Virus record (IMG/VR): IMGVR_UViG_3300029338_000118
Origin: a virus
DNA length: 6,836 bases
Reading direction: 5' to 3' (one strand)
Shown here: positions 1,950 through 6,836 of the stretch, one piece after another
How positions within the stretch are numbered: position 1 is the stretch's first letter
Layout of the letters: every line of letters begins with the position of its first letter
Program-made: the position numbers and the translations under genes
The notes under the pieces: generated by a model
What the model was told of the DNA's origin: nothing
Seen by the model: the letters and a program-made list of their open reading frames with translations, nothing else
Database searches by the model: none

Positions 1950-3134
1950 ATGGATTGGGTTTCTCCTGTTTTAGGTGCTGGCGCGACTATTGCGTCAGCC
2001 CTAATTGGTGGTTCTTCTAAAGATAGCTCTTTGGCTGGTTCTTATATACCACCTAATAATAATAAAGTTACTTGGAAAGATGGACGTTTAGCGTATTATG
2101 ATCCTACAACAAACGAGACTTTTGATTATATGGATAATGCCACTAAGTCAAAAATTCCTAAGTCTGTTTATTGGTCAATTATGATGAATCAAGCAAACCA
2201 GATGTTTTCGGAAAAGATGTGGAATGCACAGAATGCTTATAATACACCTTTTAATCAGGCTCAACGTTTAAAGGCTGCTGGTCTTAATCCTTATTTAGCT
2301 ATGCAAAATGATGGTTCTATCGGTATGGCTGAATCTGCTTCTACTCCTTCCGGCTCTGCCGATATGTCTTCAGGTTCTGTAGATGCTTCTTTGGCTGCTT
2401 CACGAAGTCAATTAATTGGCTCTATGGGCAATATTTTGCAGTCTGCTTTTTCTAATATTAATCAACAGAAAATTGCTTCTGCACAAGCTGATAAATTGCA
2501 GTCTGAAACAGATTATCAGAATATTGTGAATAAATTTGCTATTACTGATATGATTACTAAGTTGCAACAACGTATGGCTGAAACGCATGACACTGAAGCT
2601 AGGAAACGTTATCAGGATATTATTAACTATGTTACCGATTCTTCTAAGGAATATTTTGTAGAGAAAAATCATTCTGATGCAGTAAATTCTTTAAATACTA
2701 CTCTTCTTCAAGAAGATGAGCATAATTTAAATGTTGCACGTTTGCGTTCTCAAAAGCTTGAGGGTGATTTGCTTGCTGTCAATTTATCTTGGCTTCCTAA
2801 AGAAAAAGCTGCCGGCATTGCTCAGGCTTATGCTCAGGCTTATGCTTCCACCTCTTCTGCAAAAGCTTCTGAACAAGCTGCTTTGAATTATGCTGCTGAT
2901 ACCTACGGCAAACAGTTTGACAATAAAATGCGTGATGAGTTACGTGCTGTTATTAAGAAGTCTGAACAGTCTCGTTATGATTCTCAACGTACTTCTCTTG
3001 ACGTTCTTAAAGAACAGCTTAGAGAAGCTAGAAAAAATAATAATACTTATGAAATTCGCCTTATTGGTGATATGATAGGTAAAATAACTGGTGGCTTCCA
3101 AAATTACGCTGTTGGTAAACATATGCTTAAATAG
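1950..3134 (+). CDS. VP2: Minor capsid / DNA pilot protein VP2 (functional analogue of phiX174 H).
   Basis: The product is 394 aa. It has a Gly/Ala-rich hydrophobic N-terminus (VSPVLGAGATIASALIGG). It carries the motif FNQAQRLKAAGLNPYLAM, matching the (R/K)xxxAGLNP motif typical of gokusho- and alpavirus VP2. The C-terminal half is long, Q/A/K/E-rich and predicted helical. Its position downstream of VP1 fits. Confidence 0.8.
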   Translation: MDWVSPVLGAGATIASALIGGSSKDSSLAGSYIPPNNNKVTWKDGRLAYYDPTTNETFDYMDNATKSKIPKSVYWSIMMNQANQMFSEKMWNAQNAYNTPFNQAQRLKAAGLNPYLAMQNDGSIGMAESASTPSGSADMSSGSVDASLAASRSQLIGSMGNILQSAFSNINQQKIASAQADKLQSETDYQNIVNKFAITDMITKLQQRMAETHDTEARKRYQDIINYVTDSSKEYFVEKNHSDAVNSLNTTLLQEDEHNLNVARLRSQKLEGDLLAVNLSWLPKEKAAGIAQAYAQAYASTSSAKASEQAALNYAADTYGKQFDNKMRDELRAVIKKSEQSRYDSQRTSLDVLKEQLREARKNNNTYEIRLIGDMIGKITGGFQNYAVGKHMLK

Positions 3135-3164
3135 TTTCTTGTTTTTGATTTTCTTATATCGTTA

Positions 3165-3199
3165 GCCGTTTGTCTACTATTGTAGGCAGACGGCTTTTT
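3165..3199 (+). terminator. Rho-independent terminator ending the long + strand transcription unit.
   Basis: The stem pairs gccgtttgtcta (3165-3176) with taggcagacggc (3183-3194), 12 bp including two G:U wobbles. The loop is ctattg and a TTTTT run follows at 3195-3199. It starts 31 nt after the VP2 stop. Confidence 0.8.
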
Positions 3200-3226
3200 G
3201 CATTTCTGTATTTCCTAATTTACTTA

Positions 3227-3280
3227 TCTAGATTCAGTATTTTATTTATTCATTTTATTTATTTATTACTGATTCTAGAT
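3227..3280. repeat. 13-bp imperfect inverted repeat bracketing a 28-nt pure A/T-plus-one-C tract of (TTTA/TTATT)n type.
   Basis: tctagattcagta (3227-3239) pairs with tactgattctaga (3268-3280), 12/13 complementary. The spacer is ttttatttattcattttatttatttatt. Confidence 0.7.
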
Positions 3281-3648
3281 TTTAAATTAGCTATCTAATC
3301 ATGCAGCTATTAAGCACTTTTTTAGTGCGCTGCCTTTACCTCTTGTTTAATATTGGTTGAAGTGACACCATAAATTTTCTGAACACTTCAACATGCTTGC
3401 CTTTAGTTTAGGCAAGTTTCTTTGTGCGAGTTTCCGCAGAAGGAAACGACAACCCATTATTTTAAACTCTATCCGTTAGGCTTCGATACCTATGAAAAAC
3501 ACTAGCCTTTTTGTTTCTTTTTGGGCAATGCCAAAAAGAAAACCCTCGGTAGAGCCCGCGGAGCGTAAATGCGCTCGGTTCCGCGCGCTAGGCGGAACTC
3601 AGGTTATAGGGCTGAAAGCCCTAATCGCCTATCCTCGCCAACTTTTGA

Positions 3649-3728
3649 GCGCAACATAATAGACGTTGCACAATCCGAAAATTGCACGCATGTGAATTTT
3701 CGTTTGTGTGACGTTTATTATGTTGTGC
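3649..3728 (+). repeat. Long imperfect hairpin: about 36 bp in 80 nt, in three helical segments with an apical 4-nt loop.
   Basis: 3649-3673 pairs with 3704-3728 (25 bp, four of them G:T). An internal loop follows, with t3674 and c3675 opposite t3703. 3676-3683 (cgaaaatt) pairs with 3695-3702 (aattttcg). 3685-3687 (cac) pairs with 3692-3694 (gtg) around the loop gcat. All non-canonical pairs are G:T, which would be C:A mismatches on the - strand. Confidence 0.85.
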
Positions 3729-3733
3729 GTTCG

Positions 3734-3740
3734 GCGAAGC
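3734..3740 (+). repeat. GCGAAGC mini-hairpin motif, copy 1 (context cGGCGAAGC). It sits immediately 3' of the long hairpin.
   Basis: The exact heptamer gcgaagc is at 3734-3740. The same GGCGAAGC octamer recurs at 3845-3852 and 3862-3869. Confidence 0.7.
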
Positions 3741-3752
3741 AGAAAATGGACA

Positions 3753-3805
3753 ATAATTTAGTCGTTTAAATTGCGACGAAGGAGCCTTTTAAACGTCTAA
3801 ATTAT
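3753..3805 (+). repeat. Second long hairpin: an 18-nt inverted repeat with one mismatch and a 17-nt loop.
   Basis: ataatttagtcgtttaaa (3753-3770) pairs with tttaaacgtctaaattat (3788-3805). 17 of 18 positions are complementary, with a t3762/t3796 mismatch. The loop is ttgcgacgaaggagcct. Confidence 0.8.
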
Positions 3806-3843
3806 GTTCATTTTCACATTTCCGTTGGTCGAACACTCAAGCT

Positions 3844-3878
3844 TGGCGAAGCTGTTAAGCTGGCGAAGCCAGTTAAAT
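3844..3878 (+). repeat. Tandem 17/18-nt direct repeat, each unit carrying a GGCGAAGC (GCGAAGC mini-hairpin) core.
   Basis: Unit A is tggcgaagc-t-gttaa-gc (3844-3860) and unit B is tggcgaagc-ca-gttaa-at (3861-3878). The GCGAAGC cores are at 3846-3852 and 3863-3869. Unit B extends to a 5-bp stem, ctggc GAA gccag (3860-3872). Unit A can alternatively fold as agctt/aagct (3840-3853). Confidence 0.75.
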
Positions 3879-3951
3879 TGTTGTTTATGTTAAAGCAATA
3901 CAAATTAATATAAAATTCGTTATTATATTATCGGTTATTATTTTTTTTAAT

Positions 3952-3959
3952 TATCTTTG
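3952..3959 (+). promoter_or_regulatory. Bacteroidota-type -7 promoter element (TAnnTTTG) for the whole + strand gene block.
   Basis: tatctttg at 3952-3959 matches the TAnnTTTG consensus of Bacteroides primary-sigma promoters. A ~55-nt very AT-rich tract precedes it. It lies 57 nt upstream of the first ATG (4016) and is the only such motif between the terminator and the first gene. I found no clean -33 TTTG at the expected spacing. Confidence 0.5.
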
Positions 3960-4015
3960 CGCCAGTTTTGAAGGTTGTTATACCTTATTGTTCTTTGACT
4001 TATTGTTACAAAATT

Positions 4016-4381
4016 ATGACTTCACATTTAACACTTGTTCGTATTAAGACTTCCTCGTCTTTGGATTCTATTCAAGGAGAGTTGTATGTCAATGGTTTGT
4101 TCTTCTGTCATACGATAGAAAGATTAAGTAAGGCAGTCCCTAAGGGCTGCTATCCTCTCGGTGTCTCTTACTCACCGCGTTTTAAGACACGTTTGCCTTA
4201 TTTGTCTGTTCCTCATCGCAAAGGTATTCGCATTCATGCTGGTAATACCGCAAAGGACTCTCAGGGCTGCATTCTTGTCGGTAAGTTAGATGATTGTTTT
4301 ACTATTATTAATTCACGTTTAACGTTGAAAAAACTTCTTTCATCGTCAGACTATTCATTTCATTCAATAATTATTAAGTAG
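4016..4381 (+). CDS. DUF5675-like protein with a YkuD (L,D-transpeptidase)-like His...Ser-x-Gly-Cys motif. It is a candidate cell-wall-acting or lysis enzyme.
   Basis: The product is 121 aa from the ATG at 4016; the track's 3968 start is a TTG inside promoter DNA and is unlikely. The pattern G-x-L-x-x-N-G-x-x-x-C-x-T-I-E ... P-x-G-x-Y-P-L ... S-P-R-F ... V-P-x-R-x-G-I-R-I-H-A-G-N ... S-Q-G-C-I-L-V-G follows the layout I remember for the phage and Bacteroidota DUF5675 family. The segment IHAGN-x(5)-SQGCILV resembles the YkuD catalytic HG-x(n)-S-x-GC[IV] motif. This family assignment is from memory and was not searched. Confidence 0.65.
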   Translation: MTSHLTLVRIKTSSSLDSIQGELYVNGLFFCHTIERLSKAVPKGCYPLGVSYSPRFKTRLPYLSVPHRKGIRIHAGNTAKDSQGCILVGKLDDCFTIINSRLTLKKLLSSSDYSFHSIIIK

Positions 4382-4485: not shown

Positions 4486-4493
4486 TATGTTTG
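4486..4493 (+). promoter_or_regulatory. Second TAnnTTTG motif directly upstream of Rep, possibly an internal promoter giving a near-leaderless Rep mRNA.
   Basis: tatgtttg at 4486-4493 ends 6 nt before the Rep ATG at 4500. This is a motif match only, and such 6-specified-base motifs are expected by chance in AT-rich DNA. Confidence 0.2.
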
Positions 4494-4499
4494 TATATT

Positions 4500-6242
4500 A
4501 TGTGTCAGAATCTTCCTTTTACTAAGTGTCTTCACCCTGTTAAGGTGAGGACACTTAGAGGTATTCAACTTGTTAAGTGTGGTAAGTGTCCTGCTTGTGA
4601 AAATGCTTTGCGTTCTGAACTTCGTGCAAAGGTACAATTTGAAGAAAATAATGCACTTGCTTGTTTTTTTATTACAAACACATATTCAGATGCTAATCTT
4701 CCTTTGTTTTGTTTACGTAATGATTTGATTGAAGATAGCGATAAGCAATATAGTAAATCAGGCTCTACTATTGATGATGAGTTTTATCGTTCTTATAAAT
4801 CTATTAATTATACAGATATTTATGGCGATAAGCATACTTTTGAAGGTTCTTTCTCACTTGCTTCTCGTAATGTTGGTTTTTTCCCTTTATCTGAACGCAT
4901 TCAGGAAGATAATTATAATAAAAAACTTGATTCTTGGTGTCTTGATTTAGATAATTCTATTTATTCACGTTGCATTCTTGCACATGCTTCTGATCATTTT
5001 GATAATTTGTTAGCTGCTTATCATTCTCAACTTGAAAGTAATGTTGCTAAGTGTCGTTCTTTAGGTGTTCGAAATCATTCTTTGTCTTGGTATGATTTTG
5101 TTGATAATAATTACCTTGAATTAGATCATTTAAATTGCGTTCCATTGCTTTATTATCCTGATTTGCAGCGTTTTATTAAACGTTTAAGAAAGTTAATTTC
5201 AAAATTATTTCCTTATGAAAAGATACGTTACTACGCTATTGGAGAGTACGGGACAAGTTCCTACCGTCCGCATTGGCATATCTTATTGTTCACCAACTCG
5301 GCTAAAGTTGCCTCTTGGCTGCAACAGTCCTTTTACAAAAATGATGTTCTTTCAACAAAAGATAGAACAATTAACGGCTCCTCTATTTTGGATTCGCTCT
5401 GGAAATATGGTACTTGTACTATTGATAAGACAGATGGCAAAGCTAGTGGATATATTTCAAACTATGTTGTTGGCACTTCTGTGCTCCCAGAGATACTTAC
5501 ACGGCTTGCTCCGCAAAAAACCTTCCACTCTGTTCGATTCGGTTGTCCGTACACGAAGAGTGAGGTCCGTGAGTTCTTTCTTGGACGAAATTATGAACGG
5601 TTCTCAACAATTGAATATGTCTTGCCTACAGACTGCACTTTGCAATCTCGTCCCTTATGGCGGTCGTATTACTCTTTGTTCTTCCCTCAATTTGTTGGAT
5701 TTAACTCTTTGCCTGATGAAGAAAAATATAGAGTACTTACGGTGTATCCCAAACTTGCCTCATGGTTCTTCGAAACTAATGTAAGTGAACTTGCACGTAA
5801 GATTTATTTTCGTTGTATCGCCCCCTATCGAAAAGGTAAGGTACTTGATGAAGTTAGTGCACAAATCGCTAAGTTTTTTGATTGGTTTGATTGGTCTTCT
5901 GGTACTTCTTTAACACTCTCACCACTTCTTGGTGTGCTTTATGCTTCTAAGCGGTTTTTATCCATTTCTTCCGATTTTGGCTTTACCCCTCGACAGTATT
6001 TTGATATATGGCGTGATTTTGTCAATTGGCGTGATTATAAGTGTCTAGTACAACATTTAAATGATTGCCGTACAAATGAAATTTATCTTAATTGTTATTA
6101 TAAAATTTATTCGGGTACTGATATTTCTTTTGATTACTTAAATGATTCTGCTTTATTTAAAACATTCCGTTATGACGCTTTACGTACTAATCAACGGCTT
6201 GTTAAACATAAGGCTTTTGTTGAACAACTTAAAGGTATTTAA
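4500..6242 (+). CDS. VP4: Rolling-circle replication initiation protein VP4 (HUH endonuclease, phiX174 A-like).
   Basis: The product is 580 aa from the ATG at 4500; the track's 4491 start is a TTG. The N-terminal Cys cluster is CLHPVKV...VKCGKCPACENALRSELRAKV. Motif 1 is CFFITNTYSD, of FxTLTY type. Motif 2 (HUH) is YRPHWHILLF. Motif 3 is SGYISNYVVG, with two Tyr spaced YxxxY as in phiX174 A protein. The length fits the long alpavirus-type Rep. Confidence 0.9.
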   Translation: MCQNLPFTKCLHPVKVRTLRGIQLVKCGKCPACENALRSELRAKVQFEENNALACFFITNTYSDANLPLFCLRNDLIEDSDKQYSKSGSTIDDEFYRSYKSINYTDIYGDKHTFEGSFSLASRNVGFFPLSERIQEDNYNKKLDSWCLDLDNSIYSRCILAHASDHFDNLLAAYHSQLESNVAKCRSLGVRNHSLSWYDFVDNNYLELDHLNCVPLLYYPDLQRFIKRLRKLISKLFPYEKIRYYAIGEYGTSSYRPHWHILLFTNSAKVASWLQQSFYKNDVLSTKDRTINGSSILDSLWKYGTCTIDKTDGKASGYISNYVVGTSVLPEILTRLAPQKTFHSVRFGCPYTKSEVREFFLGRNYERFSTIEYVLPTDCTLQSRPLWRSYYSLFFPQFVGFNSLPDEEKYRVLTVYPKLASWFFETNVSELARKIYFRCIAPYRKGKVLDEVSAQIAKFFDWFDWSSGTSLTLSPLLGVLYASKRFLSISSDFGFTPRQYFDIWRDFVNWRDYKCLVQHLNDCRTNEIYLNCYYKIYSGTDISFDYLNDSALFKTFRYDALRTNQRLVKHKAFVEQLKGI

Positions 6243-6248
6243 TTAATT

Positions 6249-6836
6249 ATGTCTAAAGATTCAAATATTATGGGCTTTCATTCTATTAAGAATAAGGCTC
6301 ATTTTAACACATTTAATCTTGACCGCCGTAACTTGTTTACTGCAAAAATTGGTCAATTACTTCCTATCTTTTGTGAAGAGGTCATCCCAGGAGATGAGAT
6401 TCATATTAACATGCAGCATTTTTCTCGTTCTATGCCTGTACAGACTGCTGCTTTTACTCGTCTTAAGGAAAATATACAGTTCTTTTTTGTCCCTTACACT
6501 TCTCTCTGGTCGTTCTATCGTGACGCAATGAAGAATGTGCCTGTTAATCAGGCTGGTTTACCTAATACAATGCGTGCCCAGTCTCCTTTTGATTCTACTC
6601 CTCTTTCTTCTGAACTTCCTAGTTTCTCCTCTTTTGAGATTTATAAATGGTTCAAATATGTTTCTTCTAAGTTTGCTGATTCTGATGTCAACAATGTAGG
6701 TGGTTCTCATGCTCTTCGCCTTACTGAAAGTGCCCGTTTGCTTCAGTCTTTAGGCTATGGCAATTTTACTACCATTTCTAAAATCTATCGTGATGATGAG
6801 AAGAAACCTACTACTCTTATGCTTGACGGTAAATCA
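6249..6836 (+). CDS. VP1: Major capsid protein VP1 (phiX174 F-like), 5' part. It continues through the circular junction into 1..1569, for a full length of 2,019 nt and 672 aa.
   Basis: The ATG at 6249 lies 6 nt after the Rep stop and the frame stays open to the window end; the ORF track misses it because there is no in-window stop. My translation is MSKDSNIMGFHSIKNKAHFNTFNLDRRNLFTAKIGQLLPIFCEEVIPGDEIHINMQHFSRSMPVQTAAFTRLKENIQFFFVPYTSLW... The segment F-x-L-x(4-5)-x-T-x-x-x-G-x-L-x-P-x(5)-V-x-PGD is the characteristic N-terminal signature of Microviridae major capsid proteins. Confidence 0.9.
   Translation, partial: MSKDSNIMGFHSIKNKAHFNTFNLDRRNLFTAKIGQLLPIFCEEVIPGDEIHINMQHFSRSMPVQTAAFTRLKENIQFFFVPYTSLWSFYRDAMKNVPVNQAGLPNTMRAQSPFDSTPLSSELPSFSSFEIYKWFKYVSSKFADSDVNNVGGSHALRLTESARLLQSLGYGNFTTISKIYRDDEKKPTTLMLDGKS
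6699..6836. repeat. Terminal direct repeat, copy 2 (the same sequence as 1..138). It is an assembly or permutation overlap of a circular genome, not a biological repeat.
   Basis: Exact identity to 1..138. It lies inside the capsid ORF, so it cannot be an LTR- or att-type repeat. Confidence 0.95.

Follow-up and report, generated by a model that had tools for sequence, protein, structure and literature searches.

A multi-hairpin intergenic module of gut microviruses: a candidate complementary-strand origin separate from the phage attachment site

IMG/VR virus record IMGVR_UViG_3300029338_000118, analysed here as a stretch of 6,836 nt (the window), represents a circular microvirus genome whose unique length is 6,698 nt, the first 138 nt being repeated at the end (1-138 = 6699-6836). 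In this genome 833 non-coding bases (3135-3967), unusual for so compact a family, separate the DNA pilot protein gene from a gene for a DUF5675 protein. Folded as single-stranded DNA (ssDNA), this non-coding region reached -149 kcal/mol (z = -10.7 versus shuffles), and within it, at 3649-3728 of the + strand, stands a hairpin of 36 bp (hairpin 1). What is the function of this hairpin? The original prediction had offered two answers, a folded attachment site (attP) in the style of phage CTXphi, or a hairpin that primes second-strand synthesis. We found that what is conserved as a unit is a module of ~450 nt (3423-3872 of the window), an array of at least eight hairpins over 450 nt in which hairpin 1 is one cassette. 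In sequence the module represents a new family; in kind, it is a modular and unusually large form of the origin-type hairpins of ssDNA-phage intergenic regions.

Structure, covariation and strand of the hairpins

Hairpin 1 was recovered by folding, by an inverted-repeat finder, by RNAalifold and by pair counting. On refolding (ViennaRNA, DNA parameters), its architecture was as originally described: i) a 25-bp basal helix, which holds all four G:T pairs; ii) a 2x1 internal loop and an 8-bp helix; iii) a 1-nt bulge, a 3-bp helix and a 4-nt loop, so that 36 bp (25 + 8 + 3) are formed within 80 nt. Its minimum free energy was -27.4 kcal/mol as compared to -9.8 +/- 2.1 kcal/mol in 200 dinucleotide shuffles (z = -8.35), with 0/200 as good, and it took the top rank of the inverted-repeat finder, confirming the claim that it is the strongest hairpin in the window. 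Among homologues the lower stem (GCGCAACATAATAGACGTT / GACGTTTATTATGTTGTGC) was nearly invariant, while the upper stem and apical helix varied freely with compensation.

A second long hairpin follows at 3742-3815 of the + strand (hairpin 2; ~30 bp with two 1-nt bulges; -18.0 kcal/mol, z = -6.8). A neighbour of this kind had been predicted at 3753-3805, 25 nt on; its existence held, while its extent and spacing had to be corrected, the gap being 13 nt. The apex of hairpin 2 is a C-GNA-G triloop in which N was A, T, G or C across homologues. The 13-nt linker between the two hairpins carries a GCGAAGC mini-hairpin (3734-3740, + strand), which read GCG[A/G/T]AGC in 51/51 homologues. On the 3' side of hairpin 2 lies a conserved unpaired segment (3816-3841, + strand; …CACATTTCC-GTTGGTCGAACACTCAAG), near-invariant also in loci gathered with an unrelated anchor, and a candidate recognition or start site; no complement or antisense target of the conserved unpaired 18-mer was found elsewhere in the phage genome. 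The 3' end of the module (3843-3874, + strand) holds two more GCGAAGC mini-hairpins (3846-3852 and 3863-3869), the second of which sits in a stem (3858-3874) whose helix 2 covaries (UA/GC/CG). The 5' half (3423-3648, + strand) is a series of smaller hairpins including GTTTCC…GGAAAC, TTTGGGCAATGCCAAA, GCGGAGC (3558-3564) and GGGCTGAAAGCCC. In total, the motif GCGNAGC occurred four times on the + strand within 3558-3869 (312 nt) and five times in the whole window, against 1.23 expected; in the three best-aligned copies the G and A of the triloop were invariant across homologues, and the middle base was A, G, T or C.

Two candidate features of the module were tried and set aside. The invariant ATGAAAAACACTAGC was rejected as the start of a small gene, as frame and length vary among homologues (three frames, 11-100 amino acids). 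The 8-mer ATTATGTT, which includes the TTATGTT of the original prediction, occurs at 3716-3723 and 3799-3806, that is in the 3' arms of both hairpins at similar height above the stem base, and the arms opposite carry ACATAAT and ACAATAAT; that hairpins 1 and 2 are paralogues was not established, the alignment being unconvincing.

Homologues were collected from several sources. BLAST against GenBank phages showed the non-coding region to be a mosaic common piecewise to pig-gut microviruses, and an IMG/VR scan combined with a metagenome scan (anchor outside the hairpins) yielded more than 60 hairpin-carrying loci, designated below by L numbers. Ten loci from a 15-mer scan of IMG/VR (L011, L012, L014, L020, L022, L023, L026, L030, L032 and L033), which were without capsid gene or module, were discarded as chance matches. 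An exact search of species-representative genomes with a 26-mer of the module gave 0 matches; the provirus L040, found later, carries a 1-nt variant of it.

For covariation analysis we used 51 distinct homologous sequences, with 500 shuffles and with pairing partners slid by 1-3 columns as controls. RNAalifold predicted both hairpins independently. In hairpin 1, 99.8% of 1,783 pair cells were paired, and 14 of the 35 pairs had changed on both sides (100 cells), a level reached in 0/500 shuffles; when partners were slid, pairing fell to 33-52%. Similarly, hairpin 2 was 99.0% paired and had 16 pairs with double changes (0/500 shuffles).

The fold of hairpin 1 was more stable by 4.9 kcal/mol on the + strand (-27.4 kcal/mol) than on the - strand (-22.5 kcal/mol). 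Moreover, the non-Watson-Crick cells comprised ~181 G:T and only 1 A:C. Thus the predominance of G:T over A:C and the greater + strand stability indicate that the fold was selected in the + strand. In 56/56 loci the module was located 3' of the pilot gene and shared the strand of the capsid gene. In Microviridae the packaged strand is the strand of the capsid gene and has the sense of the mRNA, as is known for phiX174.

Integration site of the proviruses

The attachment-site hypothesis held that the CATAA / TTATG cores in the arms of hairpin 1 resemble dif arms, and that the stem would mimic a dif-like duplex for host XerC/D recombinases. Its premise, that these microviruses integrate without an integrase of their own, was right. 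Xer use has been proposed for the integrase-less Alpavirinae proviruses, some of which have an extra dif-like sequence near one end (PMC3091885). In the window, none of the genes encodes a recombinase.

Many of the "viral" contigs proved to be proviruses with host flanks, and their junctions could be read directly. The left junction was …CTCATAACGCCTATTTACC-ATAATACCGGTTA-TAAATAAATAGTGTTTATCTTTGCAC…, with host sequence followed by the phage early promoter, and the right junction was …AAAATTCGTTACC-ATAATACCGGTTA-GAATTAAAAAGAGGAAAG…, with phage followed by host; by inspection only, the host side of the left junction and of attB reads as the end of a TolC-like gene. When genomes were scanned for the reconstructed right junction, Segatella (Prevotella) copri yielded 15 empty sites; one provirus was also recovered, and the host of these temperate, integrase-less microviruses was identified as Segatella copri. 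Counted over the loci, there were 15 empty attB, 24 attL, 35 attR and 25 attP sites, all of which had the core ATAATACC(G/T)GTTA, located 185-328 nt downstream of the hairpin linker. The attP and attB sequences were identical over 13-18 bp of the core, as would be the case if the double-stranded form integrates. Complete proviruses of 6.4-6.6 kb ran from attL to attR within single contigs, and hairpin 1 was intact inside the attL/attR-bounded proviruses L015, L040, L050, L099, L115 and L116.

In the window, the positional homologue of the relatives' attP is 3917-3946 of the + strand (TCGTTATTATATTATCGGTTATTATTTT), which was also the best match in the genome to attP, attB and core. It agreed with the S. 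copri-type core ACCATAATACCGGTTA at 12/16 positions, with four mismatches to the 16-nt pattern CCATAATACCGGTTAT; no site within three mismatches of CCATAATACCGGTTAT was present anywhere in the window, and no provirus with the window's own att variant was found in IMG/VR. The premise of integration at a short, loosely dif-like site was correct, but this site lies outside hairpin 1, its counterpart in the window being 3917-3946.

On the other hand, hairpin 1 itself bears little mark of such a site. Both of its arms matched the 16-nt att core at 11/16 positions (A-CATAATA---GTT-), a point in favor of a folded attP, while ~10 other positions in the genome did equally well; against the 30-nt S. copri attB the stem scored 12/30, rank 676. 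In 5/51 sequences the T:A of CATAA/TTATG had become A:T (CAAAA/TTTTG) with pairing kept. Thus the structure, and not the sequence of CATAA/TTATG, is under conservation.

Taken together, the integrase-less and temperate nature of the phage group speaks for a CTXphi-style folded attP, while a different, downstream site is defined by 59 provirus junctions (24 attL, 35 attR) along with the 15 attB and 25 attP, hairpin 1 stays internal and whole in complete proviruses, and the identical duplex core of attP and attB points to the double-stranded form. The original prediction had proposed reading whether provirus junctions fall inside 3649-3728, and had itself named junctions at another intergenic position as grounds for abandoning the folded attP; as they lie downstream instead, the folded attP is refuted by that criterion, and we leave this role next to no probability. 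The likeness to CTXphi attP(+) and to the dif-like att of Alpavirinae (Krupovic & Forterre 2011) consists in an integrase-less ssDNA phage and a short site (CATAA-TACCGG-TTAT) that is palindromic in part and loosely resembles dif. The differences are that the att site here, 185-328 nt downstream of the hairpins, is a simple duplex core, that the hairpin is no crossover site and that its "dif cores" are not conserved. With the att site defined in all four forms, including a core of 13-18 bp and a polymorphic position, the Xer hypothesis for Alpavirinae-like phages becomes directly testable.

The proviruses offered three further observations. i) Position 9 of the att core (G/T) is polymorphic, and individual proviruses combined its variants in different ways across attL and attR (T/G, G/T and T/T; for example L100, L116, L067 and L130), as expected if it lies in the overlap region between the strand exchanges (CATAA-TACC[G/T]G-TTAT). 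ii) To the right of attB, the host sequence varied by strain and contained defence-type genes (L029 1-6879; L013 451-1110; L024 5027-7309), among them a MutH/Sau3AI-like endonuclease and a C-5 cytosine methyltransferase in L029 and the N-terminus of a STAND NTPase in L013; thus the provirus borders on a variable island. iii) The 6.4-kb contig L130 had an attL (host-phage) junction at 48 and an attP-type (phage-phage) junction at 6370, which suggests either that integration was in tandem or that integrated and free forms were assembled together.

Cassette exchange and candidate functions of the module

Among the loci collected, the module was seen solely in microvirus genomes or proviruses, and its distribution did not follow that of the proteins: it was ~85% identical in nucleotides between phages whose capsids were 37-45% and Reps 25-30% identical in amino acids. 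Its central 5' part existed as at least three alternative, non-homologous cassettes among relatives. In two contigs, the 5' sub-module (ATGAAAAACACTAGC…TTTGGGCAATG) occurred in tandem ~225 nt apart (L060 854-1115 and L128 1178-1439), further evidence of cassette duplication and exchange.

We propose, giving it about an even chance, that the hairpin string 3423-3872 is a complementary (minus)-strand origin, or single-strand initiation region. The evidence thus favors the other answer of the original prediction, a priming hairpin with the architecture of a minus-strand origin, on account of the mini-hairpin motifs, the + strand fold, the lack of a promoter motif, the terminators upstream and the cassette exchange, with the priming of second-strand synthesis as the function we infer from them. 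Two attributes of single-strand origins were present: the module is non-coding and folds in the ssDNA strand (56/56 loci on the capsid-gene strand; the G:T excess over A:C), and its structure was kept by compensatory change in both hairpins. Furthermore, d(GCGNAGC) mini-hairpins melt at 70-76 C, bind single-stranded DNA-binding protein (SSB) poorly, resist nucleases, and are present in the complementary-strand priming sites of G4/St-1/alpha3 and in RSF1010 ssiA (PMC13037366); judged by the presence of such motifs (GC-closed GNA/GNNA) and by the GNA rule of their loops, the module would contain mini-hairpins of this SSB-resistant type. In other microvirus clades, intergenic hairpins with compensatory changes have been tentatively linked to negative-strand initiation (PMC9865509).

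The mechanism we envisage is as follows. In the packaged (+) ssDNA the hairpins would fold independently; after ejection, host SSB would cover the ssDNA but leave bare the long stems and the hyper-stable C-GNA-G mini-hairpins. Their duplex and loop surfaces, and with them the neighbouring unpaired segment, could recruit the priming machinery of the host, whether primase, a PriA-type primosome or RNA polymerase. A primer made there would allow the ssDNA to be converted to the replicative form. Dependence on factors of the host rather than of the phage would make the module swappable among unrelated microviruses that share a host of the Segatella copri complex, and such cassette behaviour, being typical of host-dependent origins, was counted for a priming function.

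Intergenic hairpins also make up the phiX174 primosome site and the G4 origin. Compared with these (the primase-dependent, three-hairpin oric of G4/St-1/alpha3 and the primosome assembly site of phiX174), the module is alike in consisting of adjacent intergenic hairpins in the packaged + strand of a microvirus, in having GC-closed GNA/GNNA-type mini-hairpins as in hairpin I of G4/St-1/alpha3, and in host dependence, which for the module is a proposal. It differs in having no sequence similarity to them, in size (~450 nt and at least eight hairpins versus 55 nt or ~140 nt), in its stems of 25-30 bp, in its exchangeable cassettes, in being dispensable in some relatives, and in its Bacteroidota host. 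With the minus-strand origin of M13/f1 and with the single-strand origins ssoA/ssoU of rolling-circle plasmids and integrative and conjugative elements it shares two adjacent long imperfect hairpins, orientation specificity, and cassette exchange between replicons with a common host. However, its stems have no recognisable -35/-10 or Bacteroidota -33/-7 promoter mimic (a motif scan and inspection of the stems for TAnnTTTG, as a counterpart of the RNA-polymerase-dependent origins of M13/ssoA, found none), and it lacks RS_B/CS-6-type motifs as well as any similarity to plasmid single-strand origins. The sole match in the plasmid database was a microvirus genome: L136 (NZ_CP050055.1, 6,313 bp), filed as a "Pseudomonas aeruginosa plasmid", has a microvirus major capsid gene and the 5' sub-module, and most likely represents the genome of a gut microvirus under a wrong plasmid label. 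The hairpins of reekeekee- and roodoodoo-microviruses (Olo Ndela et al. 2022, PMC9865509) are likewise intergenic and show compensatory substitutions, while they are single, 13-64 nt long, and belong to other clades and sequences; here a multi-hairpin element of 450 nt crosses capsid lineages.

Several observations weigh against a priming origin, or restrict it. i) L103 lacks exactly hairpin 1 and keeps a variant of hairpin 2. ii) L007, a contig with a terminal repeat whose proteins share 82-88% of amino acids with those of the window, has lost the stretch from the loop and 3' arm of hairpin 1 through hairpin 2 and on to a conserved hairpin termed element X (deletion variant at 6380-6597). iii) The close relatives L001, L008 and L009 (Rep 70-72% identical) have no module and retain only element X. 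iv) About 40% of the carriers of the 5' sub-module are without the hairpins, some of them being contig ends. Viability therefore does not require the module, as hairpin 1 or the whole of it is missing from L007, L103, L001, L008 and L009, and, being absent from apparently complete genomes, it is at most an accessory or redundant origin and not the sole one. In addition, G:T wobbles at fixed positions are equally typical of RNA, many relatives have a terminator-like hairpin 3' of the module (AAAGCGAG…CTCGCTTTCTC), which is compatible with a transcription unit, and the promoter argument given below rests on a single consensus motif.

The RNA-like features just mentioned raise the question whether the module is instead a structured non-coding RNA (ncRNA) gene, expressed from the replicative form or the provirus and serving lysogeny control, immunity or host manipulation. 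Covariation with many G:U-compatible pairs is the pattern of an RNA gene, the fold is on the sense strand, and, besides the terminator-like hairpin after the module in many relatives, the module is better conserved than the proteins. Yet a scan of the whole window with Rfam 15 (E <= 1) returned no family at its gathering score; the sub-threshold matches to mir-32 (31.2 bits vs 70) and mir-320 (19.9 vs 55.5) were rejected as chance, as long hairpins resemble pre-miRNAs. The module sits between two terminator-like hairpins directly upstream (3164-3195 and 3395-3417) and the motif TAnnTTTG at 3952, and on the + strand between the pilot gene and 3952 there was no other such Bacteroidota -7 motif, so that the module is probably not transcribed. 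Its loops obey the DNA rule C-GNA-G, and RNA tetraloops of the GNRA or UNCG type were absent among them. Swaps of non-homologous cassettes and loss of a single hairpin are hard to fit to one folded RNA, and near-perfect RNA stems of 25-30 bp are substrates of RNase III. We therefore infer action as DNA rather than RNA, and regard an ncRNA gene, the main rival, as unlikely; the more specific claim, that the ~450-nt module is a horizontally mobile, transcribed ncRNA, the first in Microviridae, rather than an origin acting at the DNA level, seems to us quite improbable.

The same + strand fold could equally serve some other need of an ssDNA genome, such as packaging or condensation, a Rep-related + strand origin or termination site, or protection from (or a decoy for) nucleases and defence systems. 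The nuclease resistance of the mini-hairpins (PMC13037366) is in keeping with the last of these, and defence pressure is plausible where the insertion site borders variable defence-type genes (restriction-modification, STAND NTPase). Nevertheless, the module is common to phages whose Reps are 25-30% identical and missing where Rep is 70-72% identical, which argues against a cognate Rep (+) origin, and no data pointed specifically to packaging or anti-defence; these functions are distinctly unlikely. Far less probable still is a role of the hairpins in transcription termination or insulation, at the 3' boundary of the late operon and the right boundary of the provirus. Their position, after the last structural gene and before the early promoter, and the A-tract and T-tract flanking hairpin 2 would suit such a role, while hairpin 1 has no T-run on its 3' side (…GTGCGTTCGGCGAAGC), AT-rich stems of 25-30 bp are unlike intrinsic terminators, canonical ones are already present upstream, and 450 nt with at least eight hairpins far exceeds what termination needs. 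A terminator scan called 3164-3195, 3395-3417 and 3858-3874, and neither hairpin 1 nor hairpin 2.

If the module is indeed a portable minus-strand origin tuned to Segatella copri, it would provide i) a first handle on ssDNA priming in Bacteroidota; ii) a sequence marker of host association for many gut microviruses that are hard to assign; and iii) a part for ssDNA vectors in a prominent and genetically difficult gut bacterium.

Neighbouring genes and other elements

All genes of the window are on the + strand. The major capsid protein (672 amino acids) is encoded by 6249-6698 joined to 1-1569; as its gene spans the junction of the circle, the list of open reading frames (ORFs) holds only a truncated form of 509 amino acids with a TTG start. 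It is followed by an ORF of 124 amino acids (1572-1946) and by the DNA pilot protein (1950-3134). Beyond the non-coding region lie the DUF5675 protein (3968-4381; PF18925, E = 3.5e-24; phrog_1501) and the rolling-circle Rep (4491-6242). The DUF5675 gene is the first after the putative early promoter, and was found in several, though not all, related microviruses. A scan of the window for tRNA and tmRNA genes found none.

The putative promoter is TATCTTTG (3952-3959, + strand), a match to the -7 promoter motif of Bacteroidota (TAnnTTTG). On the + strand no copy of the motif stands between the pilot gene and this one, and the DUF5675 and Rep genes follow downstream. Its counterpart in relatives (TTATATTTGCAC/TTATCTTTGCAC) stands directly 3' of attP or attL. 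In many relatives (L013, L015, L017, L025 and others), a perfect 12-bp palindrome, TTTCACGTGAAA, is conserved ~60 nt 5' of attP, between module and attP, but the window lacks it. This palindrome is a candidate operator-like site for protein binding on duplex DNA.

On the 5' side of the module, a strong hairpin with a T-run, resembling an intrinsic terminator (3164-3195, + strand), stands just 3' of the pilot gene, and a second terminator-like hairpin (3395-3417, + strand) directly 5' of the module. Between the first of these and element X lies a long AT-rich inverted repeat (TAATTTACTTATCTAGATTCAGTA…TACTGATTCTAGATTTTAAATTA, 3215-3290). Element X (3301-3394, + strand) is a conserved hairpin that reads …GAAGTGACAC…CACTTC… / …GAAGTGACACC…CACTTC…. 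It is upstream of the module in the window and downstream of it in other lineages (L013-type phages), and was 87-90% identical in the module-less close relatives L001, L008 and L009; element X may be a more universal cis-element of these genomes than the module.

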